Part shown: positions 5,138-43,226 of the stretch, one piece after another
How the letters are laid out: each line of letters starts with the position of its first letter
How positions within the stretch are numbered: position 1 is the first letter of the stretch
Notes under the pieces: generated by a model
Databases searched by the model: none
The model's input: only the letters and a program-made list of their open reading frames with translations
Told to the model about the DNA's origin: nothing
Program-made: the position numbers and the translations under genes
NCBI GenBank assembly: GCA_041653995.1
Contig: JBAZEK010000001.1
Span: 1,030,613 to 1,094,612 of the forward strand
DNA: 64,000 nucleotides
From: Dehalococcoidia bacterium
GTDB lineage: Bacteria > Chloroflexota > Dehalococcoidia > GIF9 > UBA5629
Direction: 5' to 3'

Positions 5138-7201
5138 ATGGTGACAATGCTGAGGCTCTGCATAGCCCTGATTATCATTATCGCATTGGTCCTGCCAGGA
5201 ACAGGTTGTATTAAATTGGGCAAACTGCCGGGAAAACAGGCCGCGGAAAATAAGACTGCAGCATCAGGCGTCACGGCCGGGGGAACTGCCGGACAGTCAG
5301 GATCACAGGCGCCGGACACGGCGGGCAATCAGCCCGGTCAGGGCGGACAACCGGGCGCCCAACCCTCCGGCCAGGAGGCACAGGTCATTACCGGCGGTGG
5401 TGGAGTTGCCGTTGCCAACTGGATCGGCACCTGGCAATGCGGCAACTTTAAAATGTATCTGAACCAGGCAGGTGACCGGGTAACTGGGTGGTACGAGTAC
5501 GAAAACAGCGACATCGAAGGCACTGCTACCGGCAACACTCTCACCGGTACCTGGACTGTATCAGGTGTTAAATATGGTTTTCAGATTGTTCAGTCCTCTG
5601 ACGGCAAATCCTTTTCCGGCCGTTATAACCAGGGAACTTCAAGCAATCAAGGTGGATCATGGTCATGCACAAGGATAAGCACGGCCATGCCCACTGCAAA
5701 ATCATCAGGAGAAAATTCCCAGGTAATCACCCAGGGAGGAGGCGTGGCCGTTGCCAACTGGATCGGCACCTGGCAGTGCGGCAACAATAAAATGTACTTG
5801 GACCAATCAGGAAATCAGGTGACCGGGTGGTTCGATTCTGAAAATAGCGATATTGAGGGCTTTGCCACAGGCAATACACTTGTGGGTACCTGGACCAAGG
5901 GCGGAGTCAAATATGATTTCCAACTGGATCAGTCGTCTGACGGTAAATCATTTGCCGGACATTTTCGCCAGGGATCATCAGGCGCATGGACGGGAGAATG
6001 GTTCTGTATACGCACCAGCAGCGCCAGACCTCCGGCGAAACCAGCCACATCATATCCCCCCTCAGCCATACAGACTGCAAGCTGGACAGGTACATGGGAA
6101 TGCAATAATTATAAAATGTACCTGACCCAGACAGGCAGCAAGGTGACCGGCTGGACTGAACTGGATAATGGTGACATCGAAGGCTATGCAACCGGTAACA
6201 CAATTGTCGGCACCTGGACACTCTCCGGAATTGAATATGATATTCAGCTAAACCAGTCATCCGACGGCAAATCCTTTACAGGCCATTACCGTCAGGGTTC
6301 ATCAGGCAATTGGGCAGGAAGCTGGCCCTGCACTTTTATAACCAACGCACAGCCTCTGCCAAAGTCCGCAGTTCGATCTCAGCCTGCACCGACAGCACCC
6401 CCCACAAGCTGGACCGGCACATGGCAGTGCGGCCAGAAACAAATATGGCTACTTCAGACGGGCAGCCAGGTCATTGGCTGGTATGATGAACAGAGCGGTG
6501 ATATTCAGGGCTATGTCACAGGAAATACACTGGTAGGAACCTGGGCGGACGCCTCGGGTGAAAAAGATATTCAGCTGTCCATGTCCGCAGACGGGAATGC
6601 TTTTTCGGGTCATTACCGCACCAGCCCTTCAGCAAGCTGGATCAGCCACTTCTCCTGCACGAAAAAAAGCGCGGAATTACCCGCACCCAAAGTAACATTT
6701 GATATACAGCCCGTAAGTATTACCAGGGGGATGTCCGCGCAGTTATCCTGGAGCACTATACTGGCTACTTCTGTAGATATTAAACCGGACATAGGTCCCT
6801 GTGGCGCTAATGGCAAAATAAATGTCAAGCCCGACGCAGACATCTCATATACATTGAGCGCGAGCAACCCATTTGGCGGATCTAAAGTAACAGTTCCCCT
6901 AAAGGTAACATCGCCGAACTGGAGCGGGGAATGGGACTGCGGAAGCTTTGGGCATATGATACTCACCCAATCCGGCAACCAGGTTAACGGAATATATACA
7001 TACCAGGGCGGTAAAATCAGTGGCTATGTTAACGGGAATAAGCTTGCAGGAACGTGGTCTGAGGACCCGACCCATAAAGCTCCTGATGATGCGGGTGGTT
7101 GCGAATTCACCCAGTCAGCAGATGGTCTTTCCTTTACCGGTTATTATGACTACGGGTTTTCAGGCGCCGTGAGTCCCTGGAACGGGAAAAGGATTAGATA
7201 G
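5138..7201 (+). CDS. secreted/lipoprotein repeat protein with five ~95-aa two-cysteine modules plus an Ig-like domain
   Basis: 687 aa. Signal peptide with an LPGTGC lipobox-like site, then a G/Q/P-rich linker. Repeated modules follow the pattern W.GTW.CG...MYL.Q.G..VTGW...DIEG.ATGNTL.GTW....SSDGKSF.G.Y. The DNA has near-identical stretches at 5407 and 5750. Confidence 0.6.
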   Translation: MVTMLRLCIALIIIIALVLPGTGCIKLGKLPGKQAAENKTAASGVTAGGTAGQSGSQAPDTAGNQPGQGGQPGAQPSGQEAQVITGGGGVAVANWIGTWQCGNFKMYLNQAGDRVTGWYEYENSDIEGTATGNTLTGTWTVSGVKYGFQIVQSSDGKSFSGRYNQGTSSNQGGSWSCTRISTAMPTAKSSGENSQVITQGGGVAVANWIGTWQCGNNKMYLDQSGNQVTGWFDSENSDIEGFATGNTLVGTWTKGGVKYDFQLDQSSDGKSFAGHFRQGSSGAWTGEWFCIRTSSARPPAKPATSYPPSAIQTASWTGTWECNNYKMYLTQTGSKVTGWTELDNGDIEGYATGNTIVGTWTLSGIEYDIQLNQSSDGKSFTGHYRQGSSGNWAGSWPCTFITNAQPLPKSAVRSQPAPTAPPTSWTGTWQCGQKQIWLLQTGSQVIGWYDEQSGDIQGYVTGNTLVGTWADASGEKDIQLSMSADGNAFSGHYRTSPSASWISHFSCTKKSAELPAPKVTFDIQPVSITRGMSAQLSWSTILATSVDIKPDIGPCGANGKINVKPDADISYTLSASNPFGGSKVTVPLKVTSPNWSGEWDCGSFGHMILTQSGNQVNGIYTYQGGKISGYVNGNKLAGTWSEDPTHKAPDDAGGCEFTQSADGLSFTGYYDYGFSGAVSPWNGKRIR

Positions 7202-9532: not shown

Positions 9533-9684
9533 TTCCAACCCTGTCAACGAAAATACTTTATCTATTTTAGCACAGCATCCAATCTGTCTATACCGGCCTG
9601 CAGCCGCGAATGCCATTAACCCGACCGATAGTATTTTTTGACTATTGTTATAAACATCAATATAATATATGATAATATGAGTAT

Positions 9685-10050
9685 ATGGTAATATATTCAG
9701 GGAGTAATCATTTGGCTGAATTGAAATTGGACCGGGTCACGCTGTATGAGTTTCATGCTCAGTTCTGCAAGACGCTGGCTGACGCCAATCGTTTGCTGAT
9801 CATCGCAGAACTTGTCGGTGGAGAGAAGTCTGTGACCGATCTGGCGCACAATCTGGGCCTCGGTCAGTCCAATGTGTCGAAGCACCTGGCGCTGATGAGG
9901 GAGCGCGGACTGGTGGAAACCAGGCGTGACGGCGCGTCCATCTACTACTCACTGTCGGACCCCAGAATCTTTAAGGCTATTGAACTGCTGGTGCAGGTTC
10001 AAACCGAACAGGTTGCCAGAAGGCATAGCCTTGCGCAGCACAGCCGCTGA
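9685..10050 (+). CDS. ArsR/SmtB-family transcriptional regulator
   Basis: Winged-HTH motif LADANRLLIIAELVGGEKSVTDLAHNLGLGQSNVSKHL. It sits upstream of sulfur-relay genes. Confidence 0.85.
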   Translation: MVIYSGSNHLAELKLDRVTLYEFHAQFCKTLADANRLLIIAELVGGEKSVTDLAHNLGLGQSNVSKHLALMRERGLVETRRDGASIYYSLSDPRIFKAIELLVQVQTEQVARRHSLAQHSR

Positions 10051-10116
10051 CGCCGTACGGCGTAGTATCAGCTATGAACGTTGGATTTTAATCAAAAGTT
10101 AAGGAGGCTATTCGAA

Positions 10117-10596
10117 ATGGATAACCAGGCAGACGGGGTGACCATAATAGTAATGAGTGGCGACATGGATAAGATAATAGCTGCGTTCAATATCTCCATT
10201 GGCGCCGCAGCTCTGGGCAAAGAAGCTAATATGTTTTTCACATTCTGGGGCATCAAGGCCATTCAGAAGGGCAACCTGACCGGAGACAGTTTCTTCGGCA
10301 AGATGATGGGGCTTCTGAACCGCGGCGGCATTGATCGCATCGGCCCCTCCCGCTTCAACTTCTGGGGCATGGGGAAATGGATGTTCAACCAGATGATGAA
10401 AATGCATAAGATCACACCCATAGCCGAGCTGCGTCAAACCGCCATCGACCTGGGAGTCAAGCTTCTACCCTGCCAGATGAGTATGGAAGTAATGGAAATC
10501 AAAAAAGAGGATCTCATCGACGAGGCCCAGCCTGCCTGCGGTGTGGCCACCATGCTGGAAATGGCCTACCGCTCCAAGGCGACCCTCTTTATTTAA
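10117..10596 (+). CDS. DsrE/DsrF-like sulfur relay family protein
   Basis: An AAGGAGG RBS lies 9 nt before the ATG at 10117. The VTIIVMSGDMDKIIAAFNISIGAAALG... stretch is typical of the DsrE/DsrF-like fold. Confidence 0.7.
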   Translation: MDNQADGVTIIVMSGDMDKIIAAFNISIGAAALGKEANMFFTFWGIKAIQKGNLTGDSFFGKMMGLLNRGGIDRIGPSRFNFWGMGKWMFNQMMKMHKITPIAELRQTAIDLGVKLLPCQMSMEVMEIKKEDLIDEAQPACGVATMLEMAYRSKATLFI

Positions 10597-10606
10597 GGAG
10601 CATATT

Positions 10607-11059
10607 ATGTCAGTAGAAAATGAAGTAGTAATGACGCTTAACCTGGAAGGTCTCCTCTGTCCCATCCCGGTAGTTAAAGTCAGCAAAGCAATGCAGGACC
10701 TTCCCGTCGGGGGCGTGCTGGAAGCGACGGCCACCGACCCGGGCGTGCTTGCCGACATCCCCGCCTGGGCGCGCACCACCGGCAACGAGGTCATCAAGAT
10801 CGAACGAGAAGGCAAGCTGGTCAAATTTCAGATCCGAAGATTGAAATATTATACCCGCCATGATCGATCTATCGTTGGCTGTTCTCCTGGTCTCGTTGGC
10901 CGTTGCCCTGGCAGGCGTGGCGGTATGGATTTACCAGCTCTTCTCCAGGCCGAGCGCGTGCGATCCATCGCCCGGCAAGGGTTCGGACAAGCTGGGAGTA
11001 CTGTATGCCTTTACACTTGGCATGCTGCCGTGGAAGAAGGAAAGCGCCGGCCTGCATAA
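10607..11059 (+). CDS. TusA-like sulfurtransferase (with unexplained C-terminal extension)
   Basis: The LEGLLCPIPVVKVSKAM region contains the CPxP active site of TusA. The ORF runs ~70 aa past the usual TusA end and overlaps the next gene by 200 nt. This may be a frameshift or a genuine overlap. Confidence 0.65.
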   Translation: MSVENEVVMTLNLEGLLCPIPVVKVSKAMQDLPVGGVLEATATDPGVLADIPAWARTTGNEVIKIEREGKLVKFQIRRLKYYTRHDRSIVGCSPGLVGRCPGRRGGMDLPALLQAERVRSIARQGFGQAGSTVCLYTWHAAVEEGKRRPA

Positions 11060-11504
11060 AATAGTCTATCTAAGGGGTATCTGCTTTCACATCGGCATTT
11101 TCGCCGGTATAGTGGCGCTAATACTTAGTATCTTCGGCATAGCGGCCGGCAGCACGTTGAACCTGGTGCTGAGCATACTGATGTGGATCGGCGCCGTTGC
11201 AGGCGTTACAGCAATAATATCACGCGCAACCGAAGCCAACCTGAGGGGGATCAGCCGCCCCGACGATTACATCTCGCCCGCGTTGATCACGCTCTTTATG
11301 TCCATGGGCGCGCTGCACGCCATGAACCTCGTCGATACCGTGTATTTTTATGCTGCCGCCAGCGTGCTGTGCCTTTACCTCCCCTGGAGCAAGGTCCGGC
11401 ACTGCGTTTACTTCTTCTTCATGCGCGGTAAGATCGGCGCGATGATGGGCCATCGAGGTCTGCTGGGCACGACGCAACGACAGACGAGGAAAGGAACACC
11501 ATGA
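10860..11504 (+). CDS. polytopic membrane protein, possibly NarI/HdrE/DsrM-like cytochrome b partner of the CCG protein
   Basis: 214 aa with ~5-6 TM helices and several His in or near the helices. It is translationally coupled (ATGA overlap) to the downstream CCG-domain FeS protein. Confidence 0.4.
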   Translation: MIDLSLAVLLVSLAVALAGVAVWIYQLFSRPSACDPSPGKGSDKLGVLYAFTLGMLPWKKESAGLHKIVYLRGICFHIGIFAGIVALILSIFGIAAGSTLNLVLSILMWIGAVAGVTAIISRATEANLRGISRPDDYISPALITLFMSMGALHAMNLVDTVYFYAAASVLCLYLPWSKVRHCVYFFFMRGKIGAMMGHRGLLGTTQRQTRKGTP

Positions 11505-12790
11505 GCGACAACGACACAGCCACATTAACACCGGCGAATCCGGCATCTACGGACGCCGATATGCTTGATAAGCAGCTGACCAGAGAGGTTGAAGCTGCGC
11601 TGGGCGGCTGCGTACGCTGCGGCCTCTGCGCCGAGTCCTGCCATTACTACTCCGCCCAGCCTCAACTTCAGAATATGCCCGTCTACCGGGGTGAGGCCGT
11701 GAGAAAATTTTTCCGCCAGGCCGGCAGCCGGGCGAAGGGATTATTTCATCGGCCTGCAAAGGCGAAAACCGATGTATCGTCCCTTGACACGCTGGCGGAT
11801 ATGGCCTTCGGCAAGTGCACCCTTTGCCGCCGCTGCACGGTGAACTGCCCTGTGGGAGTGGATACGGCGGCGCTCATGCGTACCGCACGCGCCATCGCCA
11901 CGGCCTCCGGCAAAGCGCCGGAGATACTGGTCCAGCTCGCCGATGCGGCCATCAGCCGCGGGGAGAACATGGAGCTCTTTCGCGATATGTTGCTGGACCG
12001 TTTCAAAGAGCTTGAGGTCGAGACACGCAACAAGATCAATGATCCCGCTTTTTCGATTCCCGTGGGTAAAAAAGGCGCCGATATGCTGTTCGTAGGCCTC
12101 TCGGGCGAGCACAGCATAGTGCCCCCCGCCATATTGTTTCATTACGCCGGGGCAAACTGGACACTCAGCCTGTTTGAGGCGTCCAATTATGGCTCATTCC
12201 TGGGCGACAGCGAGAGATCGAAAAAAATAGCTCAACGCATAATCGACGAAGCCGGAGACCTTGGTGTGAAAGAGGTTGTGATCGGCGAGTGCGGCCACGC
12301 ATATACGGTGCTGCGCTGGGAGGCGCCCAAGTGGTTCAAAAAAGCGCTGCCGTTTCGTGTCAGGAGCCTGATAGAGGTGCTGGCCGAGTGGATACAGAGC
12401 GGGCGGCTGATCCTCAATCCCGAGGCCAATCCCGATCCTGTCACATATCATGATTCCTGCAACCTGGGCCGCAACGGCGGCCTTCTGGAGGAGCCACGCG
12501 TTGTGCTGCGCGCTGCAGTCAAGGATTTCCGCGAGATGTACCCCAACAGGGAGGAAAGCTATTGCTGCGGAGGAGGCAGCGGCATGGTGGCCGTTTCCGA
12601 ATGGGAAGAACGGCGCATGCTGGCGGGCTTGCCTAAAGCCAGGCAGATCAAGGCCACCGGCGCTAAAATCGTTGTCGCTTCCTGCGACAACTGCCGTATC
12701 CAGCTTGGCGAGCTCAACGAGCGCTACAACCTGGGCATCAAAGTGACCGGCCTGGCCGACCTGGTTGTGAACGCCGTCGTCAAAAAATAG
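11501..12790 (+). CDS. (Fe-S)-binding protein with two ferredoxin-type CxxCxxCxxxC motifs and C-terminal CCG domains (HdrD/DsrK/GlpC-like)
   Basis: Contains CVRCGLCAESCHYY and CTLCRRCTVNCP motifs plus a cysteine-rich CCGGGSG CCG-domain signature. Confidence 0.8.
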   Translation: MSDNDTATLTPANPASTDADMLDKQLTREVEAALGGCVRCGLCAESCHYYSAQPQLQNMPVYRGEAVRKFFRQAGSRAKGLFHRPAKAKTDVSSLDTLADMAFGKCTLCRRCTVNCPVGVDTAALMRTARAIATASGKAPEILVQLADAAISRGENMELFRDMLLDRFKELEVETRNKINDPAFSIPVGKKGADMLFVGLSGEHSIVPPAILFHYAGANWTLSLFEASNYGSFLGDSERSKKIAQRIIDEAGDLGVKEVVIGECGHAYTVLRWEAPKWFKKALPFRVRSLIEVLAEWIQSGRLILNPEANPDPVTYHDSCNLGRNGGLLEEPRVVLRAAVKDFREMYPNREESYCCGGGSGMVAVSEWEERRMLAGLPKARQIKATGAKIVVASCDNCRIQLGELNERYNLGIKVTGLADLVVNAVVKK

Positions 12791-12834
12791 TTCCAGTGGG
12801 CCTTTTCTCTCCCTGCATTGCCGGCGCTTATTAG

Positions 12835-12919
12835 TCATTGCGAGGAACGTAGTGACGAAGCAATCCTGTACGTGATTGCGTATACACAAGATTGCCACGC
12901 TTCGCTCGCAATGACGAGG
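12835..12919. repeat. ~85-bp palindromic intergenic element, copy A (MITE/REP-like, TIR TCATTGCGAG)
   Basis: tcattgcgagg...cgaagcaatc...gattgcc...ctcgcaatgacgagg, with a perfect 10-bp terminal inverted repeat. A second copy lies at 16887-16972. Confidence 0.6.
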
Positions 12920-16873: not shown

Positions 16874-16886
16874 GCCGGCGCACGCG

Positions 16887-16972
16887 TCATTACGAGGAAC
16901 GCAGTGACGAAGCAATCTTGTGCCGTCATGCGCGTGAACAGGATTGCCGCGCCCTCCGGGCTCGCAATGACC
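16887..16972. repeat. ~86-bp palindromic intergenic element, copy B
   Basis: tcattacgaggaacgcagtgacgaagcaatcttgt...acaggattgccgcg...ctcgcaatgacc. It is ~80% identical to copy A in the arms and lies between convergent genes. Confidence 0.6.
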
Positions 16973-26886: not shown

Positions 26887-29545
<2,659 letters not shown>

Positions 29546-31038: not shown

Positions 31039-31275
31039 TTACATGATGTAGGGCGTGCGGCAGCATTTAAGTGCAACACGATGAGAACATATGGTGGGCG
31101 ATACTGGATTTGAACCAGTGACCCCCTGTGTGTAAGACAGGTAAAAACCTTTAATTGACTGGAGCTTATTGATAATCTCTAGGGAAGCCTTACGTTGTCC
31201 TGAAAGAATCATGCTCAAATAGCTTTTACTGATACCTAATTCTTTGGCTAATTGACTCTGTGTTAACTTTTTCAT
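31039..31275 (-). CDS. XRE-family HTH regulator (island-borne; C-terminus reads through attL into host flank)
   Basis: LTQSQLAKELGISKSYLSMILSGQRKAS HTH_3 motif. The last ~35 codons are encoded by the att repeat and flank. Confidence 0.55.
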   Translation of the reverse strand: MKKLTQSQLAKELGISKSYLSMILSGQRKASLEIINKLQSIKGFYLSYTQGVTGSNPVSPTICSHRVALKCCRTPYIM

Positions 31276-31530
31276 TTATTTCACCCGCCTTTTTATATCC
31301 TTTAAGCCTGCGTTTCCAATTATCGGTAAATATTGGTACGACTTCTTCTGTCTTCCTTTTGCACTAAAGTTCCCCTGTGGTTTTCTCACAAAATGACAGT
31401 CTACCTCATCAATAAGCCATCTCCGTCCAATGTAGAGTGCATTAATCCGTCCCTCTGACAAAAGCTTACGAACCCGTCTCTCAGATATACCAAGCCTTTC
31501 TGCTGCCTGTGGAACCGTAAGTAGTTTCAT
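31276..31530 (-). CDS. excisionase-like HTH DNA-binding protein
   Basis: LLTVPQAAERLGISERRVRKLLSEGRINALYIGRRWLI is an Xis/MerR-type HTH_17-like motif. Confidence 0.6.
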   Translation of the reverse strand: MKLLTVPQAAERLGISERRVRKLLSEGRINALYIGRRWLIDEVDCHFVRKPQGNFSAKGRQKKSYQYLPIIGNAGLKDIKRRVK

Positions 31531-31823
31531 TCAATTACCTTCTATCATTTTAATATTATACCGTTATCGGAATAATGTCAAGTATAATTACAAGCTAAAA
31601 TATCTTTTCTTTTTGCCGCATTTTTCCATAATACTCCGCAGAATTTTTTCAAATCGTATTTAAATTAAGTTTTAAAAGTTCAAGAATGAGGGTTTATAAT
31701 ATGCATATAAACTGGAAGCATATGGAAGGAAGCACGATAGAAAGTTAGAACGTAAGCAAGCGAGTAAGCAAGAAGGAAAGCAGGCGAGCAGGGAAGCTAT
31801 GTTGCTTTCCTTTTTTTAATTTT

Positions 31824-32057
31824 TTGATTCGGAGGTACGAAATGACTGAAAACAAGGTCAAGGAAATTAGATTGAGCAAATGCATGAATCAGAGAGAACT
31901 GGCAGAGAGAGCTCATATCTGTCAAACAGCTATTTCAGACATTGAAAGGGGGGTAAGACTACCATGGAAAGCAGCGTCTGAAAAGCTTGCTATTGCATTG
32001 GGTGTCACAATCGAGGAATTATTCCCAAACAATCTTAGGGGAGGTAAAAATTGCTAA
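31824..32057 (+). CDS. XRE-family HTH regulator (divergent from Xis-like gene)
   Basis: MNQRELAERAHICQTAISDIERG motif. A 290-bp AT-rich divergent intergenic region resembles a lysogeny-type switch. Confidence 0.75.
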   Translation: MIRRYEMTENKVKEIRLSKCMNQRELAERAHICQTAISDIERGVRLPWKAASEKLAIALGVTIEELFPNNLRGGKNC

Positions 32058-32398
32058 ACAAAAATAGAACGTCTTTAAAGCTGGGAAACAAGAAAGTAGG
32101 CTACTTTGAAGGTGATAAATTCATCAAACCCGTAATCGGCTCAAAGCATCTGCTGAAATTTCCTTACCAAGCTTGGGCAATTGATGCCAAAGTATTTGAC
32201 GATGAAATTAAACCTAACGCCAATTATTTTATTGTAAGAGATAGGGAGTCGGGGCTTGAATATAGTTGTACGGTAAAGGACTTCGACAATTTAAAGCGAA
32301 CCATTAACAGAGGGTATGGTAAGCAGTACAGTCTATCTCTAAAACATTGGAAAATAGCAGCTATGGAAGACGCTGAAGCTTCCAGTAACGCAACATAG
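32051..32398 (+). CDS. hypothetical protein
   Basis: 115 aa ORF co-oriented with and overlapping the XRE gene. No recognisable motif. Confidence 0.4.
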   Translation: MLNKNRTSLKLGNKKVGYFEGDKFIKPVIGSKHLLKFPYQAWAIDAKVFDDEIKPNANYFIVRDRESGLEYSCTVKDFDNLKRTINRGYGKQYSLSLKHWKIAAMEDAEASSNAT

Positions 32399-32528
32399 AG
32401 TAGTGCAGCACCCGTTTTAGTAGTTGGAGGTGCTGTGTAAAAATGGTATTAGACAGAAGGAAAAGGCTGATGGAGGAGGGTATGACTCGCCATGATATTT
32501 CAGGAGCCTACTTATTTAATCAATTCAA

Positions 32529-33026
32529 GTGAGTTGTAATAGATGGTCATACCTATTCGATGGTCTTAAGGAGGAAAATATGATTCAGGGCATAGAAAAT
32601 TATATAAATTTAACAGATACCAAGAATGAATGGGCAAAATTTCTAAATGGCTTTGAATGGCATTGGTTCTTTACTCTCACATTTGATAAAAAGGTAAGTG
32701 ATGACTTGGCATACAAGCAATTCTTTAGGTGGAAGAATTGGATAAAGAGTTCAGTAGGACACAGAATTTTCTATCTAATTATTCCTGAGCGTCCCAAGTA
32801 TAAGGGAGATAATACTCATATTCATGGATTTCTTAATGGTGTTGAAAATGAGAAACCCTACATATGGAGAAGGAAATGGGAGGCAATGGCAGGCTTTTCT
32901 CGGATTCAACCCTATGATAGTTCAAGGGGTGCAAGCTATTATCTAGCGGATAAAATTGTATTTAAAGAAGAGGATATTTATCATAGCAAAGACCTAAATA
33001 TGATAAAGATAAATACACTCAATTAA
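32529..33026 (+). CDS. putative HUH-superfamily rolling-circle replication initiator (Rep)
   Basis: Three motifs in canonical order: motif I FFTLTF, motif II HIHGFL (HUH) and motif III SYYLADK (YxxxK). Confidence 0.45.
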   Translation: MSCNRWSYLFDGLKEENMIQGIENYINLTDTKNEWAKFLNGFEWHWFFTLTFDKKVSDDLAYKQFFRWKNWIKSSVGHRIFYLIIPERPKYKGDNTHIHGFLNGVENEKPYIWRRKWEAMAGFSRIQPYDSSRGASYYLADKIVFKEEDIYHSKDLNMIKINTLN

Positions 33027-33165
33027 ATCCATTATATATATCAATATGATTATTACTACAAACATCAATATTTATTTCTTTTACTTTTACTTTTCCTTAT
33101 GCCCCTTTTTTATTTTTGCCCCAAATATGAATTAAATATAAATATCTACAATTAATTGCATAAAA

Positions 33166-33858
33166 TTGGGGCATAGGGAAAAAATCACATATAAAATTCA
33201 AATAGAAAGTCAGGAGGAATCAGTAAGTAAAATGAGTACAATAATTTCAAAACCTACGACAATTCAAATTAGCATGCTTGGGACACATGCCTTTTGTGAA
33301 TATAGGATATATCTTGAGCTTGTTATGGGTTTTAAAGCACGAGGTACACCAGAAATGCTTGAAGGCACAAAAGCACACTCAAGGATAAATACGATGGCTT
33401 TCTTAACGAGAGATTCAAATATTAGCATTGAGGATGCGTTGCTCCAAGCAGAGTCAGACGGAAGAGAAATAACAAAAAGGAACGTACGGGTAACAGGTAA
33501 GATACTACGTGGGAATATCGATGAAATTCACATTGGGCCAAAAGAAATTACGATTATAGATGATAAAAAATGGGCAGAGCATTATCCATCATATAAAAAT
33601 CAAGTCTTTGGCTATTGCCTTGCGTTTAAAGAACAATACAACCCAAAGCAGCCGATATACGGTGCCATAAAGAATTATCAGTCTGGAAAGGAAGTCTGGA
33701 AAAAACAATTTTCAGTTTTGGAAGAGGAATATATAAACGGCATTGTTCAAAGAATACTGGGGATAATTCGTGAGGATATCACTCCAAAACCCATTGGTGT
33801 TAGAGAAGTATGCTGGCAATGTGGATTTAAAAATTACTGCAATGTAAGGACACGATAG
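33166..33858 (+). CDS. Cas4-like / PD-(D/E)XK RecB-family nuclease with 4-Cys cluster
   Basis: An N-terminal Cys (HAFCEY), a D...IDDKK nuclease core, a QVFGY (QxxxY) motif and a C-terminal CWQCGFKNYC three-Cys motif. No CRISPR array is nearby. Confidence 0.5.
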   Translation: MGHREKITYKIQIESQEESVSKMSTIISKPTTIQISMLGTHAFCEYRIYLELVMGFKARGTPEMLEGTKAHSRINTMAFLTRDSNISIEDALLQAESDGREITKRNVRVTGKILRGNIDEIHIGPKEITIIDDKKWAEHYPSYKNQVFGYCLAFKEQYNPKQPIYGAIKNYQSGKEVWKKQFSVLEEEYINGIVQRILGIIREDITPKPIGVREVCWQCGFKNYCNVRTR

Positions 33859-33895
33859 CAAAATGGTGGAAAAAGGAAAAAGAAGAAACTAACTA

Positions 33896-34159
33896 CTATA
33901 CTGCCTTGAAACCCACAATAAAGTAATTTGATTTATCAAATATAAGTCTTATCTTGTGTTCTGAATTATCCTTGCCGGCCAGGGCAATTAAGAATGATAG
34001 CTTCTTTGGATTAGTAACTGTCTTAGAAATTGGACGATGGACAATAAAACCCTCAAGTTCAATCTTCACATATCTACAGCCAGTCTTCGGATATGGCAAA
34101 TCCTTCTCTTCCACAATATCTATATATTTGCATATGGCTGAATTTGTCCTTCTTGGCAT
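33896..34159 (-). CDS. hypothetical protein
   Basis: 87 aa ORF on the opposite strand within the island. Confidence 0.3.
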   Translation of the reverse strand: MPRRTNSAICKYIDIVEEKDLPYPKTGCRYVKIELEGFIVHRPISKTVTNPKKLSFLIALAGKDNSEHKIRLIFDKSNYFIVGFKAV

Positions 34160-34503
34160 ATTTATTTCCTTTCTTCCCTTTTCCGCTAAATTTAAACTAA
34201 ATATAAATATCTACAAATTATTATATTAAATCCACAACCAAATTTGAATATGAATGCCACAGATAAATGGCGGAAAAGAAAAAGAGTCTTAGAGATATTA
34301 TTATTTTGTATTATTTTCTTTAATAGTCAGATAGCAAGTGTGGCTAAGGGCAATTTTACCTTTAAAAATATTGAATCTGGTTGTCATTTGTCTAGTGCTT
34401 TAAAAATAGAAAACCTTCACGTGTGAGAAATGCCAGTAGCACGTGTATTAGAAGCGGCATTTTAAATAAAATCTTAGCCCAAAGTCATAGCAAATATAGA
34501 TTG

Positions 34504-34532
34504 TTGCATGCGTCCTTTTAATACGATAGAAT
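34504..34532 (+). promoter_or_regulatory. sigma70-like promoter TTGCAT-17-TAGAAT (copy 1 of duplicated promoter-leader)
   Basis: The same architecture recurs at 40413-40441. It is followed by a GGGGAG RBS and an ATG at 34559. Confidence 0.5.
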
Positions 34533-34558
34533 ACGGTCAATGTAGTGAGGCTGGGGAG

Positions 34559-36502
34559 ATGAAATATTTACTTGCTTGTTTCATAGCACTATTCGTTATA
34601 TCAGCCTGTGCATCTCAAGTCCATGTTGGTGACCAAGCTCCAAACTTCACACTGACAGATATAAATGGTAAACGTATTAGTCTGCAAGATTTTCGTGGCA
34701 AGCAGGTTGTTCTTTATCTTTGGTTTTTATATTGTCCTGAATGTACAGAAGACCTTGCTGAGATTCAAGAGTTGAATAATAATAGTGACGAAAGAGTCAT
34801 TAAGTTCCTAACCATTAACCCAGAAAATTCATCAAAAGACGTTGCGGATTTTTTCACTAAAAATGGATATAGTTTCCCAGTTTTGTTTGATTTAGATGGA
34901 AGTATTTACAAGCAATATAATTTACGACCTCGGTCTGCACCCTACACAATAATTATTGCTCCTGATGGAAAGATTAACAATATTACAGTGGGGAATCTTC
35001 ATTATCAAGGTGGTTTAAAACGGTTAATTGGAGATAACGTAACATCCTTCAGTCCAAGTGCACAAACTCAAAAGACTCCAATAATTATCGTACCCAGTTT
35101 ACAATCTCATGGTGTCGATGAACTTGCTTATGTATCTAGCGAAACGAACACGAACTCTATATATGTCGTGAATGCAAACGGGGAATATATTGCTAACTCA
35201 TCTGGAAAAATGGATGCATTATACCATGTTAGTTGGTCGCCAAACGGAGATAAGATTATTTTTGAAGTGGTTAAAGATATCAATATAGACCAGAGAAATA
35301 TGACCCTTATTTCTTCGTCTGATATTTATTCTCTTGATATTAAAGACCATGAAGAGCGTAGACTTACTTCAAATTATCCGTATAGCAATTGTTCTCCCAC
35401 ATGGATTGAAGACGATAAAATCGTATTTTATTCAACAAGGGGAAGTTCGTATGGCAGTTTTTTACAAAATATATACATCATGAACGCAGACGGAAGTAAT
35501 CAGATAAATTTAACTAATTGTGCAGAGAATGTACCTATGGTATTAGAACCAATATTATCGCCTGACCACTTGTCTGCAGCATATATTACGGGTAAGTTAT
35601 TCGATGAAGATATATATGTGATAAACCTAGTGAATGGAAATAAATTTGAAATAGGCCATAATCCAACATTTGCACCCTGGACTTGGTGGTCTCCAAACAG
35701 TAAACAGATAGCGTATATATCTGCCTCTCTAAACGGGGGGCCTGAATCATTTTATCTCTACGATGTCGAAAAACAGAAACCGATAAAATACTATGATAGC
35801 CCTCAATCTTATTCTATTATGGAAATAGCATGGTCGCCAGACAGTAACAAAGTCGCTATTTTTGAAAAACCGCAGAGCTTGTATGTTTTAGATTGTCTGA
35901 GTTCCAAGTTTACAAAACTTGATGGGATATGTGACTGGGTAGTAGAGATGAAATGGATACCTAATAACCAACAAATAGCCATTATTGGTGACAGGTTTAC
36001 AAACAGAAACTTGTATGTAATTGATATTGGTGAGCAGAGTAAGCATAAAATCAATCCAGAGGGAACGGCAGTCGAGTCGTATCGATGGTCAACTGATAAT
36101 ACAAGAATCATTTATTGCTTAGATGATGGATATCTTTACACAACTTTCCTACCCAACTTAAATACCATAAAACTAATGCAACTTAATAAAAATACGATAA
36201 AAGGGTTAGCTTTGTCACCAGACGGTTTATTAATCGCTGTTGCTCTGAGTGACGATACTCTAACTGTAATTTCATTAAACAATAACAAGGTGTGCTTGTT
36301 AACTAATGATTATTACAATATTGGAGCAATTTCTTGGTCGCAAAACAGTAACATACTTGCATTTGAATACGGAACTTTATGGGATAGTCCGTTTGTATGC
36401 AGTAACATTCAAATCATCAATTTCGAAAACGAGGAACAGTTCATTAAATTAGATAAACCAATCTCAGGACGCTCTCCAATTTGGGCGAGAAAGGAAAAAT
36501 AA
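34559..36502 (+). CDS. lipoprotein: TlpA-like thioredoxin-fold (CPEC) domain fused to TolB-like beta-propeller
   Basis: Signal/lipobox MKYLLACFIALFVISAC. The redoxin motif is GKQVVLYLWFLYCPEC. The C-terminal ~450 aa carry repeated SWSPNGDKI, AWSPDSNKVA and RWSTDNTRII PD40-like blades. Track ORF 34508 probably starts at 34559. Confidence 0.75.
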   Translation: MKYLLACFIALFVISACASQVHVGDQAPNFTLTDINGKRISLQDFRGKQVVLYLWFLYCPECTEDLAEIQELNNNSDERVIKFLTINPENSSKDVADFFTKNGYSFPVLFDLDGSIYKQYNLRPRSAPYTIIIAPDGKINNITVGNLHYQGGLKRLIGDNVTSFSPSAQTQKTPIIIVPSLQSHGVDELAYVSSETNTNSIYVVNANGEYIANSSGKMDALYHVSWSPNGDKIIFEVVKDINIDQRNMTLISSSDIYSLDIKDHEERRLTSNYPYSNCSPTWIEDDKIVFYSTRGSSYGSFLQNIYIMNADGSNQINLTNCAENVPMVLEPILSPDHLSAAYITGKLFDEDIYVINLVNGNKFEIGHNPTFAPWTWWSPNSKQIAYISASLNGGPESFYLYDVEKQKPIKYYDSPQSYSIMEIAWSPDSNKVAIFEKPQSLYVLDCLSSKFTKLDGICDWVVEMKWIPNNQQIAIIGDRFTNRNLYVIDIGEQSKHKINPEGTAVESYRWSTDNTRIIYCLDDGYLYTTFLPNLNTIKLMQLNKNTIKGLALSPDGLLIAVALSDDTLTVISLNNNKVCLLTNDYYNIGAISWSQNSNILAFEYGTLWDSPFVCSNIQIINFENEEQFIKLDKPISGRSPIWARKEK

Positions 36503-36527
36503 GAAATTTCAAAAATGGAGACTGAAT

Positions 36528-36824
36528 ATGACTGGCGAATTGGGAAATTTTGTTATCGTCATGGGATTACCCTGTTTAGGAGCGCTGTTAATAGCTTTTT
36601 GTTCATTACCAACCGATAAATGGACAATAAAACACACTTTTATGTTGGTGGGAACTTCACTAATTTTTATTAGCTTTATTTTGCAAGCATATCAGATTAT
36701 TGATAAATACCCTGATAAAAATGAATATATATTTGGATGGTGGATTGTCGGTTTAGCTACCGTTATCATGGCTATAATAGGGCAAATTATTAGAATCAGA
36801 TACGGTAAAAGTTGGTTCCAATAG
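36528..36824 (+). CDS. small membrane protein
   Basis: 98 aa with three hydrophobic helices. Confidence 0.4.
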   Translation: MTGELGNFVIVMGLPCLGALLIAFCSLPTDKWTIKHTFMLVGTSLIFISFILQAYQIIDKYPDKNEYIFGWWIVGLATVIMAIIGQIIRIRYGKSWFQ

Positions 36825-36920
36825 GATAATAAAATAGTGGGAAAGGAAAGAGAAGGAAATTTAATTAGCTATCTATATTTAAGATAAGAGTGACTTATAG
36901 AACTTCATTGAGGTTGGGAG

Positions 36921-37451
36921 ATGCAACAACAGTATCAATGCCCTAATTGTAGGTATCCAGTTGCTTATGGGAATAATTTCTGTGGACATTGTAGACAACA
37001 ACTAATCTGGCAACAATTAATGCCACCTTCACCACCAGTACACCATCAGCAAACACCACAAGGCATTATTGGGAAATCACACGAGCAAAACACTTCTGGA
37101 CAAGGTGGTCAATCAATAATACCCGATGAAAAGCGTATTAAACTTCCAAAACTCAATATTCGTTTCGACTTTGAGTTGTTTCAAGCAATTGAGGACAATG
37201 ACCGTAAACTGGCTGAACAGCTCAAAGCAAAATATGGGGATGATGTTTATAATTCCAATTTTTATAACCTGCTTAGTATCGAAGACGCTAACTCAGTAGA
37301 CTCACTTCATCTTAAACTAGTATCAGTTGAAAAAATGAATTTCAATGATATTTTATGCGAAAGTATCAAAATAGAGACTGAAAAAGTACGCAAAAGGATA
37401 GAGGAGCTTGAGAATATAAAAAATTTACGCAACGGGATTGAGGAAGTGTAA
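36921..37451 (+). CDS. zinc-ribbon protein (MQQxYxCPxC family N-terminus)
   Basis: MQQQYQCPNCRYPVAYGNNFCGHCRQQLIW matches the N-termini of chromosomal genes at 56282 and 58107. The rest is charged and coiled-coil-like. Confidence 0.55.
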   Translation: MQQQYQCPNCRYPVAYGNNFCGHCRQQLIWQQLMPPSPPVHHQQTPQGIIGKSHEQNTSGQGGQSIIPDEKRIKLPKLNIRFDFELFQAIEDNDRKLAEQLKAKYGDDVYNSNFYNLLSIEDANSVDSLHLKLVSVEKMNFNDILCESIKIETEKVRKRIEELENIKNLRNGIEEV

Positions 37452-37511
37452 GGAACTGACTAAACCCCTGAAACTGGCAGCTCGAGTAAGAAAAATGGCG
37501 GGAAAGAAAAT

Positions 37512-39368
37512 TTGATTTATATGTTATGGGATGATACGTATCGTAAAGATGCAGCGGAGTATGAAATCTATCTGCGTATGCATCATAAAGAAAAAAACGA
37601 TTACGAGAAGCTTTTATCTAATCTTGAACGTGAGTGGTCAGAAAAATCAGTTAAAGAAGAAAACTACATATCGCTTAAAAAGGAATACACAGCGAAACTA
37701 CAGGAAACAAAGAAGTACATTTCAAAGCTGAAATTCCAGATTACAGCACTCATTAAAAAATGTAATAAAGACATAGATAAAATCGATAGCCAAATTGAAC
37801 AAATTAAATTGCGGCACAAAGTTGGTGAATATTCAGAGGAGAAACTCAAAGAACTATTATCACCATCTGAAACAGAAAGAAGGCAATTTGAATCCTTAAT
37901 AATCGAACTGAAACGCATACATGGCTTGAAATATATACCTAAACCAACTACCGATGATGTTGTATCAGAAACAGAACCGAGTCAGCCTAGAAGGTCTCCT
38001 ATCCCAACGTCATCTACTTCTATTTCAACAGCTGAAGAGCAAGCCCCCGAAATATCAGCACCAATGAGTTTTGAAGAACCGCCTCCTATTTTGGTACCTG
38101 CTGTATTTAAAAAGTCTTCACCTGTAAGAGTAAAGAAGAGTCTGTGGATTATGGCTTCGATTACTATGTTTGTAATATTAATTCTCTGTTTTGTTATTTG
38201 GAATATAGAAGTGCATAAAAAGGTAATCCCTCAGATTGGAGACCAAGCTCCAAACTTCTCTCTCCCAGATATGAATGGTAAAACGGTTAACCTTCAGGAC
38301 TTTCACGGAAAGGGTGTTGTTCTTTACCTTTGGGACACATCATGTCCTTACTGCAAAAATGACCTTAGCTGGATAAATGAATTAAATGGCTGCACCTATG
38401 ACGAAGCAATAATATTTTTAACTATTAATATCTCAGATTCACGTGGAACAGCTATTAAATATTTTGAGGAAAATGGATATAGTATTCCCGTTTTAAATGA
38501 TATGCGTGGGACGGTTATTAAGCAGTATGTAAAGTACACCTTAGGCCATACGTATCCAGATACTATTCTTATTGGTTCAAATGGCCAGATTCGTAATGTA
38601 AAAGTCGGGCCCTTCCAAAGCAAGACTGAATTAAAAACATTTATAGAATCAGGTTTAACCCCCCGTTGGGATAATACTCCTCCACAAATTTATGATATTA
38701 ATCTTTCTAAGGCCTCTATTTTGAGTTGGAAAACGGATGAGGAAACACATAGTAATATACAAGGGTTTCGTAATAGTGTCGGAGGTGCTGGAGTCACTCT
38801 TGGTGAAAATTGGACAAGATATCATAGCGTAAATGAAACAGTTTGCACTAATGGCTACTATGACCAAATTCAAATCAACTCGTATGACCGCTGCGGTAAT
38901 TCTGCTTCAAAAGTTTTTACACTGCCCAACTGCATAAATTTAGGTTGTAGAGCTCCTGATTTCACAGCAACTTCAACTAATAATCAGGATATAACGCTGT
39001 CCGCAGTACCTAGCAAAATGACTCTACTTCACTTCTGGCTACTCGGATGTGGTGCATGTGAAAAGGAACTTCCATTAATCCAAAAACTATATTATGAGCG
39101 TCCTAGAGAAGAACTTGAGATATTGGCTGTGAATGTTAGAGGTGACATATACAGCATAAATGACTTCGTTACTGCAAATGGTTATAGATTAATTATTTTA
39201 CTAGATACAGAAGGCATAATAGATGCCGCCTATCATAATCCAAGGTTCCCCACAACCTTTTTATTGGATTGCAATAAGGTAATTATTAACAAGCATGACG
39301 GTGCCTTTCAAAATTATGAAGAAATCGTTGATTTTGTAGGTCAGTATCCAAAACTTCCTGGTAAATAG
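37512..39368 (+). CDS. membrane-anchored protein with N-terminal coiled coil and two TlpA-like thioredoxin-fold domains (CPYC and CGAC)
   Basis: TTG start. Single TM (LWIMASITMFVILILCFVIW). Domain 1 is IPQIGDQAPNFSL...VVLYLWDTSCPYCKND. Domain 2 is GCRAPDF...LLHFWLLGCGACEKE. Confidence 0.7.
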   Translation: MIYMLWDDTYRKDAAEYEIYLRMHHKEKNDYEKLLSNLEREWSEKSVKEENYISLKKEYTAKLQETKKYISKLKFQITALIKKCNKDIDKIDSQIEQIKLRHKVGEYSEEKLKELLSPSETERRQFESLIIELKRIHGLKYIPKPTTDDVVSETEPSQPRRSPIPTSSTSISTAEEQAPEISAPMSFEEPPPILVPAVFKKSSPVRVKKSLWIMASITMFVILILCFVIWNIEVHKKVIPQIGDQAPNFSLPDMNGKTVNLQDFHGKGVVLYLWDTSCPYCKNDLSWINELNGCTYDEAIIFLTINISDSRGTAIKYFEENGYSIPVLNDMRGTVIKQYVKYTLGHTYPDTILIGSNGQIRNVKVGPFQSKTELKTFIESGLTPRWDNTPPQIYDINLSKASILSWKTDEETHSNIQGFRNSVGGAGVTLGENWTRYHSVNETVCTNGYYDQIQINSYDRCGNSASKVFTLPNCINLGCRAPDFTATSTNNQDITLSAVPSKMTLLHFWLLGCGACEKELPLIQKLYYERPREELEILAVNVRGDIYSINDFVTANGYRLIILLDTEGIIDAAYHNPRFPTTFLLDCNKVIINKHDGAFQNYEEIVDFVGQYPKLPGK

Positions 39369-39441
39369 ATAATTTCTTGATATTAAGAAATCGAGGTGTA
39401 CTGGTCTGAACCCCTGAAACTGGACAGCTTGAGTAAGAAAA

Positions 39442-39951
39442 ATGGCGGAAAAAGAAATGCAACAGGAGGAGCATCCCCTAAATATGGGGAAGCTACTTGT
39501 GAATTTCCAATCACTTGAGATAGCTCTCCGTCTATTTCTTTATAATGATGAAATTGCCTCTAGAGTTTCATCTCCTCAGGCGGTAAACCTAAATGCTATG
39601 AATGCGGGGGATATAGTAGCTGAAAATGCGTTCACAAACTATGATAGTCTAAGTCAACTCATTGATAAATATAATAACCATCCCAACATCATATCGACAG
39701 GTCTAACCATTGATAAGACTTTAGTGGACATACGTGATGCAATAGCTCATGGAAGAGTCGCTGGAGTCACTCCTTTGCTTGTGCCTCCTTTAAAACTAAT
39801 GAAGTTTGATAAACCAAAGAACAAAAGTGTGAAAGTAACATTTAGCGTTTTATTGACAAGGGAATGGTTCATTCTAGAGATGGCTAAGGTTCAAGATGCA
39901 GTTTTTAAAGTCTTTCAAGCTATCCAAATAATACAGAGTGCTAAGACATAA
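39442..39951 (+). CDS. hypothetical protein with possible HEPN-like Rx4H motif
   Basis: 169 aa. RDAIAHGR fits Rx4-6H. The evidence is weak. Confidence 0.35.
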   Translation: MAEKEMQQEEHPLNMGKLLVNFQSLEIALRLFLYNDEIASRVSSPQAVNLNAMNAGDIVAENAFTNYDSLSQLIDKYNNHPNIISTGLTIDKTLVDIRDAIAHGRVAGVTPLLVPPLKLMKFDKPKNKSVKVTFSVLLTREWFILEMAKVQDAVFKVFQAIQIIQSAKT

Positions 39952-40412
39952 GTGGTGCCCTCTGAAATCGCTCTGAGGGGCTGAAATCAGGGTGTTGCAT
40001 ATTGAACATGACGGATTCCACCTGTCATTACTATTCCAGCTTAATTAGAGCCTTTAAAGTATTAAACAGTAAAGGTAATAACTCTACTTCCTTTCCCTTA
40101 AGCCCCTTTATTATTTCTTCGCCTAAGTTTCCGTTCAAGTGAATTATGTCGCTTTTAAGACCAACAAACGCTGGTACACCATAAACACGTTTACGTTCAA
40201 GCCAATTATGTCGTTTTGCATATATTATTTCCAGCTTAAATTAACTACAGAAAAATGGGGCAAAAAGAGAAAAAGGGGAATTATATATCAATTTATTGTC
40301 AATAATCTTTGAAATACTATTACTTCATCTGAGAGAGATGCCAGCAGCTAAGTGTAACGGCATTGAATTTTAAATAACTTCTCAGCCCAAAGTGGTAACG
40401 CATATAGGTCTA

Positions 40413-40441
40413 TTGCATAAGTATTGTTCATATAATAGAAT
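40413..40441 (+). promoter_or_regulatory. sigma70-like promoter TTGCAT-17-TAGAAT (copy 2 of duplicated promoter-leader)
   Basis: 83 bp spanning promoter -10, RBS and the first 17 codons is identical to 34526-34608. Confidence 0.5.
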
Positions 40442-40467
40442 ACGGTCAATGTAGTGAGGCTGGGGAG

Positions 40468-41880: not shown

Positions 41881-41907
41881 AAGAAAATCAAAAGGGAGGT
41901 AAAGAAG

Positions 41908-42084
41908 ATGGTAGCAAATAAGAAGAAGTATTATGCAGGGGAATCAGCTAAAGTCTCTGGCAAATACAACGAATGCAGATTGGGCACAGGCAAAACAGGA
42001 GTAACAGCAAATGTCAAGAAGGGGGATACACTCCCACCACATAAAATAGGAGCTCATTGGGAGTTATCAAGAAAATCTAAATAA
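41908..42084 (+). CDS. small ORF (58 aa) with strong RBS, not in supplied track
   Basis: AAAGGGAGGTAAAGAAG precedes the ATG at 41908. It encodes MVANKKKYYAGESAKVSGKYNECRLGTGKTGVTANVKKGDTLPPHKIGAHWELSRKSK. Confidence 0.3.
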   Translation: MVANKKKYYAGESAKVSGKYNECRLGTGKTGVTANVKKGDTLPPHKIGAHWELSRKSK

Positions 42085-42316
42085 TATAGACATATTTAAG
42101 AAAGTGGTGACTTATAAAACTTCATGCTGTCCTGAAAGCTGAATGACCGAGTATATCTTTGCACCATAATAAAGTTCAGCCAAGGCACCGTTAAAATGTA
42201 CTACAGAATTGTTCTAAAGGGCCAAAATGGGGTATATAATATAGGGCATGACAGATTCTTCCTGCCTGAGCTTTTCAAGCTTAATTATTGAACAAATAAC
42301 TATGAAATCCTGATTG

Positions 42317-43081: not shown

Positions 43082-43143
43082 TTCTTTTGTGAACTTTTTG
43101 TAGCTAACTTGTGAATATTGTGAAATTGAGCTGTAGTTTTCTT

Positions 43144-43219: not shown

Positions 43220-43226
43220 TGGGGAG

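Follow-up and report, generated by a model that had tools for sequence, protein, structure and literature searches.

A conserved cluster of DsrE2-type and TusA sulfur carriers with a membrane-bound CCG-protein pair in a Dehalococcoidia genome, and its proposed role in quinone-linked sulfur chemistry

Gene content of the locus

The sequence analysed here (the window) is a stretch of 64,000 nucleotides (nt) from a Dehalococcoidia bacterium (GenBank assembly GCA_041653995.1, contig JBAZEK010000001.1, positions 1,030,613 to 1,094,612 of the forward strand). Five open reading frames (ORFs) at 9685-12790, all on the plus strand, encode an ArsR-family regulator, a DsrE2B-like protein, TusA, a membrane protein (M) and a CCG-domain iron-sulfur protein (K). 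An earlier inspection of the letters alone, referred to below as the original prediction, had described these genes as co-oriented and tightly spaced and the last two as translationally coupled, and both descriptions were borne out: the spacing is 66, 10 and 10 nt, followed by a 4-nt ATGA overlap of M and K at 11501-11504. The features of the locus are as follows.

9638 to 9666, plus strand: sigma-70-type promoter, TTGACT-17 nt-TATAAT, matching 11 of 12 consensus positions
9678 to 9699, unstranded: imperfect palindrome TGAGTATAT-GGTA-ATATATTCA between the -10 box and the ribosome-binding site, a candidate ArsR operator
9712 to 10050, plus strand: ArsR/SmtB-family repressor, 112 amino acids (aa), TTG start at 9712, ORF also opening at ATG 9685
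10117 to 10596, plus strand: DsrE2B-like sulfur carrier (DrsE_2), 159 aa, invariant Cys119 in CQMSMEVME
10607 to 10849, plus strand: TusA, 80-aa domain, Cys18 in L-x-G-L-x-C-P-x-P, ORF open to 11059
10860 to 11504, plus strand: M subunit, NarI/Isp1/HmcE-like putative cytochrome b with five transmembrane (TM) helices, 214 aa, His66, His77 and His181
11501 to 12790, plus strand: K subunit, cytoplasmic 2x[4Fe-4S] + CCG protein, 429 aa, DsrK/HmcF/TmcB-like, ATGA-coupled to M

Orthologous arsR genes carry a TTGAC...TATAAT pair at the equivalent upstream position. The sequence of the palindrome is kept in close relatives (L009, L011, L001), and AT-rich palindromes occupy its place in the distant orthologs L032, L037 and L052. 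An intrinsic terminator was looked for downstream of K and none was found. Promoter, operator, arsR, dsrE2-like, tusA, M and K are proposed to form one inducible operon. Approximately 20 distinct loci, which belong to several phyla and whose flanks are unrelated, show the same gene order, and because it recurs in this manner the arrangement is far beyond chance. Directly past the K gene, at the place searched for a terminator, lies one copy (12834-12900) of a 67-nt repeat whose second copy is at 16886-16952 (78% identical; translation '..EERSDEAI..'); this repeat may be a REP/MITE-like element.

The regulator was recognised as a member of the ArsR/SmtB family by Pfam (HTH_5, 6e-11) and by an NCBIfam ArsR/SmtB subfamily model (87 bits, cutoff 55), as the original prediction had it. 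The start codon given there, ATG 9685, is less likely than TTG 9712, which is most likely the true start on sequence grounds because all orthologs are 112 aa long and a ribosome-binding site (GGGAG) is located at 9700-9704. The best solved relatives are SqrR (6O8L, 1e-16), NolR and BigR (3PQJ). A single cysteine is present, in an A-x-(F/L)-C-K motif that is invariant in 12 orthologs, and it lies upstream of the position aligned with Cys41 of SqrR. The NCBIfam BigR model gave 65 bits, its cutoff being 155. Below cutoff, the leading NCBIfam match was 'TsoR', on which nothing relevant was found in the literature.

Pfam searches confirmed the DsrE2-type, TusA and CCG domains. The DsrE2B-like protein matched PF13686 (6e-40, 137 bits), and its best match in the PDB was 2QS7 (SSO1126; 2.9e-17, with the cysteine aligned), which Liu 2014 gives as a DsrE2B structure in the work from which the definition of this subgroup is taken (PMC4175335). 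By sequence it is placed in DsrE2, subgroup DsrE2B; the NCBIfam DsrE2 equivalog was not reached (63 bits at full length, cutoff 210). TusA matched PF01206 (4e-19, 68.7 bits, cutoff 28.6) with the motif LLCPIP, and is assigned from its sequence to the TusA fold with a CPxP active-site cysteine. Its L-x-G-L-x-C-P-x-P motif is invariant in 15 orthologs, and the two carrier cysteines (TusA Cys18 and DsrE2 Cys119) are invariant among orthologs. Scores of TusA against the NCBIfam E. coli-type TusA equivalog (38.7 bits vs a cutoff of 78) and, slightly higher, against YedF (41.7 bits) were both below cutoff.

The end of the tusA ORF as originally listed did not hold. Read to 11059, the ORF would encode 150 aa and overlap the M gene by 200 nt, and orthologs are all 78-82 aa long. 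Codon 10847-10849 is TAT in the window and TAG or TAA in relatives, which adds 70 codons running into the M gene. Base 10849 is T in the window and G in three independent assemblies, the sole mismatch over 4.0-6.4 kb. The stop was lost either by a very recent mutation or through an error of assembly, and the TusA domain itself is intact. A programmed frameshift and a TusA-membrane protein fusion were both ruled out as explanations of the long ORF by the single TAG-to-TAT substitution.

Assignment of M was less direct. A Pfam search including Nitrate_red_gam gave no match, and weak NCBIfam matches were obtained to TmcC (4.5e-7; 30 bits vs a cutoff of 240) and HmcE (3.8e-6; 27 vs 275 bits). The AlphaFold2 (AF2) model (predicted local distance difference test, pLDDT, 76.5) shows five transmembrane helices together with a single amphipathic one, and in a Foldseek search with it the top eight matches were all NarI chains, with weak scores (E about 0.1, template-modelling score, TM-score, 0.45). 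Searches of PDB chains with the single sequence and with a 22-sequence profile returned nothing relevant, and hhalign of the M profile to E. coli NarI fell short of significance (E 0.17). Only by way of an intermediate could M be connected to the NarI family. This was an Isp1-like protein, encoded in a hydrogenase cluster on a Methylovirgula plasmid, that was found by tblastn of K on plasmids and that passes PF02665 Nitrate_red_gam; hhalign of the M profile to this protein gave a probability of 97.4% (E 9e-12, 188 columns). On this alignment M is homologous to the Nitrate_red_gam fold (the dihaem cytochrome b of DsrM, NarI and Isp1). The four haem histidines of Isp1 align to His66, His77, Phe163 and His181 of M. 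Among 83 M proteins His77 and His181 are present in every sequence and His66 in 76, and Met55 is nearly invariant. The arrangement of four histidines, two in TM2 and two in TM5 spaced 18 residues apart, is thus absent from M; the haem site on the cytoplasmic side looks intact and the distal site appears to lack one canonical ligand. The bis-histidine ligation raised for M at the outset therefore stood as a NarI/Isp1-type set of conserved haem histidines, of which three out of four are kept. The haem histidines are highly conserved in DsrM (PMC10504309), which makes a three-histidine M a real departure from its family. Judged by its charged loops, M has its C-terminus and every strongly conserved motif on the cytoplasmic side.

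K contains the two ferredoxin motifs that had been predicted, as CxxCxxCxxxC (Cys37/40/43/47 and Cys106/109/112/116), and one complete CCG domain where the prediction had spoken of CCG domains in the plural. Pfam CCG matched a single stretch (residues 314-402, 6e-13) with the cysteines 320, 355-356, 395 and 398 (Cx~34CCGx~38CxxC); the half-domain before it has degenerated, and of its cysteines Cys264, in a GECGH motif, alone remains. Over the 79 sequences compared, fourteen cysteines are invariant, eight in the [4Fe-4S] motifs, five in the CCG motif and Cys264. K is a member of the DsrK/HdrD-type CCG superfamily, and with one complete domain it differs from HdrD of HdrDE, which has two. Its grouping had been singled out as a point to check, and K fell with DsrK (260 bits), TmcB (236) and HmcF (226), not with GlpC (52), GlcF (31) or LutB (25). 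A GlpC/GlcF/LutA-type dehydrogenase subunit was rejected on these scores (25-52 vs 226-260 bits) and for want of a flavoprotein partner. The best fold match of the AF2 model of K (pLDDT 81.5) was the HdrD-like part of Mycobacterium smegmatis EtfD (E 1.6e-11, TM-score 0.67), followed by LutA and HdrB.

Pairing of M and K with sulfur carriers in three clades

A scan of species-representative genomes yielded 80 loci, and a later search with K added further loci of the clade that includes the window (clade A). M and K are neighbours in essentially all of the approximately 90 loci having both in range. A natural fusion was found in the representative library (P0159, 670 aa), with M at residues 6-207 and K at residues 251-669; its K part is 36% identical to K of the window and its architecture is that of mycobacterial EtfD. 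The M family comprises 519 clusters at 50% identity (E <= 1e-3). M of the window is 100% identical to a protein entered at NCBI for a Dehalococcoidia bacterium. Database labels for the two redox subunits are 'hypothetical protein' (M) and '(Fe-S)-binding protein' (K).

A tree of K, together with clustering of neighbouring genes, separated three clades, each with its own cysteine sulfur carrier beside M-K. In clade A the order is regulator, DsrE2-like, TusA, M, K. The original prediction had suggested checking conservation, and the DsrE2-TusA-M-K order does recur across phyla, being kept in Dehalococcoidia, Thermoflexus, Kryptonia/Bacteroidota, Armatimonadota and Aminicenantia; since the flanks are unrelated, these four genes are the conserved functional unit. 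In one Aminicenantia metagenome-assembled genome (L101 1944-2584) the core has a split M gene, with two ORFs of 68 and 98 aa, probably a frameshift or pseudogene.

Clade B (Anaerolineae; L006, L022, L026, L048 and about 30 others) has M-K in an Hmc-like order, in which genes for a molybdopterin oxidoreductase, an FeS protein, NrfD and proteins of 60 and 699 aa precede M and K, and those for a small DsrE, a CobB/DsrN-like amidase and HemA follow. The molybdopterin oxidoreductase stands in place of the multihaem cytochrome of Hmc, and the 699-aa protein, which has no Pfam match, carries a signal peptide, one CxxCH (monohaem), one TM helix and an Ala-rich helical domain. This gene set looks like an undescribed membrane complex.

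In clade C (L036, L047, L060, L074, L083 and 18 others; Clostridia, Zixibacteria, Aminicenantes and Ignavibacteria) a canonical two-cysteine DsrC, with the C-terminus ...GACKxAGLPKPDGCV, is encoded directly upstream of M-K. A class-V aminotransferase (cysteine-desulfurase-like) gene is usually present on the opposite strand. No dsrAB was found within 7 kb of clade C M-K; the flanks hold trehalose, amidohydrolase and other unrelated genes.

These neighbourhoods bear on a reading in which M-K acts on a small-molecule disulfide or other substrate, with TusA and DsrE2 providing only housekeeping sulfur delivery (tRNA thiolation, molybdenum cofactor, Fe-S clusters) or enzyme maturation. Biosynthetic roles of TusA are well documented and DsrE2B of Metallosphaera cuprina was unreactive with all sulfur compounds tested in vitro (PMC4175335), and the cysteine-desulfurase-like gene adjoining clade C would fit biosynthetic sulfur mobilisation. 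Against this, both carriers are in strict synteny with M-K in at least four phyla with unrelated flanks, and sister clades hold a different carrier at the same locus, which is hard to explain unless the carriers partner the enzyme. Mere housekeeping delivery is accordingly regarded as improbable.

The regulators beside the clade-A core vary: ArsR in Chloroflexota, a Cys-rich MerR with a nine-cysteine C-terminal tail in Kryptonia and Bacteroidota (L096/L097 3139-3591; L017 1525-2019) and a divergent CsoR-family protein in Armatimonadota (L098 3002-3310). No ArsR, MerR or CsoR-family regulator adjoins the core in L013, L021 or L101; in L021 two-component-system genes lie a few genes upstream. 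ArsR, MerR and CsoR are classical metal-sensor families, the L098 cluster adjoins copA/copZ-like genes, and TusA scored marginally best against the selenium-related YedF model, all of which could point to an operon for response to metals or metalloids (As, Se, Te, Cu, Hg). The metal sites of ArsR/SmtB sensors are an alpha3 CxC and an alpha5 DxHx10HxxE motif; ArsR of the window and 11 orthologs have one cysteine, no CxC and no alpha5 motif. The CsoR-family protein of L098 has two cysteines and no His four residues before the second; judged by the ligand pattern of CsoR and CstR, it may be like the persulfide sensor CstR rather than Cu(I)-CsoR. With no YedE present and the YedF and TusA scores both under their cutoffs, a metal or metalloid response is considered very improbable.

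Proposed electron transfer and its direction

The whole is best explained, at slightly better than even confidence, as an inducible, ArsR-controlled operon for menaquinol-driven reduction of TusA/DsrE2-bound sulfur by M-K. In its more general form, that M-K moves electrons between the quinone pool and protein-bound sulfur, the proposal is probably correct. The main argument for carrier-bound sulfur as the substrate is that M-K is found partnered with each member of the TusA/DsrE/DsrC relay, and to this extent the sulfur-trafficking module of the original prediction was upheld, M-K always standing beside DsrE2 and TusA, DsrE or DsrC. Its 'Hdr-like' character did hold in the DsrMK/HmcEF sense and did not in the sense of the soluble HdrABC (sHdr) system.

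We infer the following scheme, in which, by analogy with DsrMK and DsrC, electrons are proposed to pass from quinone to haem b, on to the Fe-S clusters and finally to the CCG site. M would be a haem-b membrane anchor of the NarI/Isp1/HmcE type that exchanges electrons with the menaquinone pool. K would be held on the cytoplasmic face of M, its two [4Fe-4S] clusters leading to an HdrB/DsrK-type CCG cluster, the type of site that forms or cleaves S-S bonds. TusA (Cys18) and the DsrE2B-like protein (Cys119) would be the protein substrates of K, in the role that DsrC has for DsrMK. The sulfane sulfur that they take up would be held as a cysteine persulfide or in a mixed di- or trisulfide linking one carrier to the other. 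The preferred direction would be reductive, with menaquinol electrons reducing the carrier-bound sulfur at the CCG site to give H2S and carrier thiols, so that the system would serve as a self-contained route for disposal or respiration of reactive sulfane sulfur. ArsR would repress from the palindrome past the -10 box and would be released by a thiol-based signal acting through its single conserved cysteine; that SqrR, a persulfide sensor, and BigR are the solved proteins nearest to it was counted in favour of this scheme.

A reductive direction makes the module self-contained, and a precedent in Desulfurella amilsii, a sulfur/thiosulfate reducer, agrees with it: an operon dsrE-dsrE-dsrK-dsrM-dsrC-dsrL ... 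dsrAB places DsrE-like genes together with dsrMK and dsrC, and it was only in cultures respiring thiosulfate that a DsrE-like protein reached high abundance (PMC6378623).

Several points weigh against the reductive scheme. K lies below all curated cutoffs (DsrK 400, TmcB 735, HmcF 750), and because K and M both fall below every NCBIfam cutoff they are not bona fide DsrMK, HmcEF or TmcCB. The distal helix-5 position of M, residue 163, is Phe, Leu, Met or Trp and never His in the 83 sequences, and since this histidine is replaced in every M examined a normal two-haem transmembrane wire is doubtful. In ArsR both positions of the SqrR/BigR sensing cysteines are occupied by other residues (the Cys41 position is Ala, and no C-terminal cysteine is present). 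SoxR, sHdrR, SqrR and BigR all need a cysteine pair (Cys50/Cys116 in SoxR, Cys41/Cys107 in SqrR) (PMC10451225). With this pair missing, a bona fide SqrR/BigR sensor was rejected and a place in the persulfide-sensor group is not supported; of the 'ArsR/SoxR-type' label in the original prediction, an overall likeness to SqrR and BigR survived and 'SoxR-type' was not established. The unreactive M. cuprina DsrE2B also counts here, as does the lack of any linked rhodanese, sulfide:quinone oxidoreductase (SQR), persulfide dioxygenase (PDO) or sulfur transporter.

The remaining points concern direction. Reduction of a persulfide by menaquinol is uphill under standard conditions from textbook potentials, and EtfD, which K matches best in structure, is understood to take electrons from electron-transfer flavoprotein (ETF) to menaquinone. 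Both fit the same complex running in reverse, with M-K oxidising carrier thiols or persulfides and electrons passing to menaquinone, for example by TusA-SSH + HS-DsrE2 -> trisulfide or by carrier-SH + H2S -> carrier-SSH. Such a complex would be a protein-based counterpart of SQR, or would correspond to the step that DsrMK(JOP) is proposed to carry out in sulfur oxidisers. Some of the hosts are probably aerobic or microaerophilic (Thermoflexus, Kryptonia, Armatimonadota); in the window a KatG-type catalase-peroxidase (747 aa) is encoded at 27302-29545, so that the host may see oxygen or peroxide, which would favour oxidation. In sulfur oxidisers DsrMK(JOP) has been proposed to oxidise persulfurated DsrC (PMC8477390), and this too was counted for the oxidative direction. 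On the other side, no linked enzyme for an oxidised product (DsrAB, sHdr, PDO or rhodanese) was present in the loci examined, and an oxidative module would for this reason not be self-contained. Oxidation of the carriers is possible, if tentative, and, favoured as it is by thermodynamics and the EtfD analogy, it is a serious rival to carrier reduction.

A broader and rather unlikely reading, reductive or oxidative, is that the module is an unrecognised self-sufficient respiratory or detoxifying system coupling the quinone pool to protein-bound sulfane sulfur without DsrAB or DsrC, acting as a persulfide/trisulfide reductase or as an SQR-independent oxidiser of sulfide or thiol to persulfide. 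Its cytochrome b may use a quinone site on the cytoplasmic side, which is possible because it lacks one ligand of the distal haem, and the system would represent a hidden sulfur-cycling role in ordinary heterotrophs of the Chloroflexota, Kryptonia, Armatimonadota and Aminicenantia. 

The module is found in lineages, many of them uncultured and some cultivable, that are not counted among the sulfur metabolisers. Should it act in the way proposed, quinone-linked sulfur chemistry would be extended to new phyla, the M-K module would have been re-partnered with each member of the TusA-DsrE-DsrC relay, and the passage of electrons between protein persulfides or trisulfides and a CCG cluster could be reconstituted in a simple system. 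The one-cysteine SqrR-like repressor and the three-histidine cytochrome b are each a testable departure from their families.

Several features elsewhere in the window were recorded in passing. A low-GC island of 12 kb (31095-43220; about 35% vs 55% GC) adjoins tRNA-Val(TAC) and is bounded by a 48-nt copy of the 3' half of the tRNA (31095-31142). Encoded on the island are a tyrosine integrase (42317-43081, minus strand), a Cas4/PD-(D/E)XK nuclease and three large AhpC/redoxin fusion proteins, one joined to a WD40 propeller, the next to a second AhpC domain and the last to an fn3 domain. At 5138-7201 a 687-aa secreted or lipoprotein-like protein without a Pfam match has four to five repeats of ~110 aa (WTGTWxCG...GxxxGxTLxGTW...SxDGxSFxG). 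A tandem repeat of 18-nt period at 44754-45075 codes for (Q-Q-P-G-Y-P)n within a zinc-ribbon protein (44587-45612), beside which a paralog (45645-46529) has the same zinc-ribbon and purple-acid-phosphatase-N domains.

Comparison with known systems

In the literature searched on TusA/DsrE proteins and on DsrMK/HdrD/HmcEF-type enzymes no description of a DsrE2-TusA-M-K cluster was found. Among redox systems with related subunits, Isp1 of Hyn-type [NiFe] hydrogenases is the closest demonstrable homolog of M (hhalign 97%) and Isp2 is a homolog of K (32% identity), and mycobacterial EtfD shares a fused cytochrome b, FeS and CCG architecture. Isp1/Isp2 and EtfD differ from the window pair in being partnered with hydrogenase or ETF and not with sulfur carriers, and Isp1 keeps all four haem histidines. 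HmcEF/TmcCB, the cytochrome b and CCG subunits of Hmc and Tmc in sulfate reducers, provide the best NCBIfam matches of M (TmcC, HmcE) and near-best matches of K, and clade B is arranged in Hmc-like order; the window proteins nevertheless score far below the cutoffs, and the pair stands alone with cytoplasmic sulfur carriers, no HmcABCD/TmcA partners and no cytochrome c, FeS or NrfD genes being found in the operon.

With regard to the carriers, the TusA and DsrE2-type pair is shared with the sHdr loci that contain dsrE3A-dsrE2B-tusA (M. cuprina, Aquificales, Hyphomicrobium) and with rhd-tusA-dsrE2 of Allochromatium. In Metallosphaera, DsrE3A and TusA swap sulfur and are encoded beside Hdr-like genes (PMC4175335). 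The likeness extends to carriers placed beside a CCG-cluster S-S enzyme, to conservation of TusA Cys18 and the DsrE active-site cysteine, and to an ArsR-type repressor comparable to sHdrR/SoxR. The sHdr enzyme is a soluble HdrAB1B2C1C2 working with LbpA, whereas the window has a membrane M-K pair that is presumably quinone-linked, and its operon is without DsrE3, rhodanese or lipoate-binding protein and has a repressor without the Cys50/Cys116 pair. No hdrA, hdrB1/B2, hdrC1/C2 or lbpA was found in the operon or its flanks, and identification as an sHdr system was rejected for lack of HdrA, HdrB and HdrC. The yedE-tusA-dsrE (YTD) cluster, which also includes conserved hypothetical genes and has been proposed to function in sulfur disproportionation (PMC12998232), is likewise a compact tusA and dsrE module of unknown mechanism found across phyla. 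It has hypothetical proteins beside the carriers where the window has the M-K redox pair, and since no YedE-like gene was found in the operon or flanks a YTD cluster was also rejected.

The closest parallel is DsrMK, the minimal form of DsrMKJOP, which like the window pair consists of a NarI-type cytochrome b and a cytoplasmic 2x[4Fe-4S] protein with one functional CCG domain and likewise partners with a small cysteine sulfur carrier; the sister clade C adjoins the canonical two-cysteine DsrC itself. The window K scores 260 against the DsrK cutoff of 400 (NF045796 equivalog; relatives from all three clades give 230-265 bits), and M is unseen by Nitrate_red_gam and is one haem histidine short of four. 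The 64-kb window was found to hold no DsrC, DsrAB or other dsr genes, and none were found within 5-7 kb in orthologous loci; beyond the cluster, the window showed no further genes of dissimilatory sulfur metabolism. The D. amilsii operon differs in the same sense, having DsrC, DsrL and DsrAB and no TusA, whereas the window module is without Dsr catalytic genes. It has been remarked in the literature that the genomes harbouring basal Chloroflexi DsrM sequences lack DsrAB. For DsrK-type CCG enzymes, substrate and direction have mostly been deduced from the DsrC system in sulfate reducers and sulfur oxidisers, where DsrC is the carrier; DsrE2-TusA-M-K is a stripped-down, four-protein version with different carriers, TusA and a DsrE2B-like protein.

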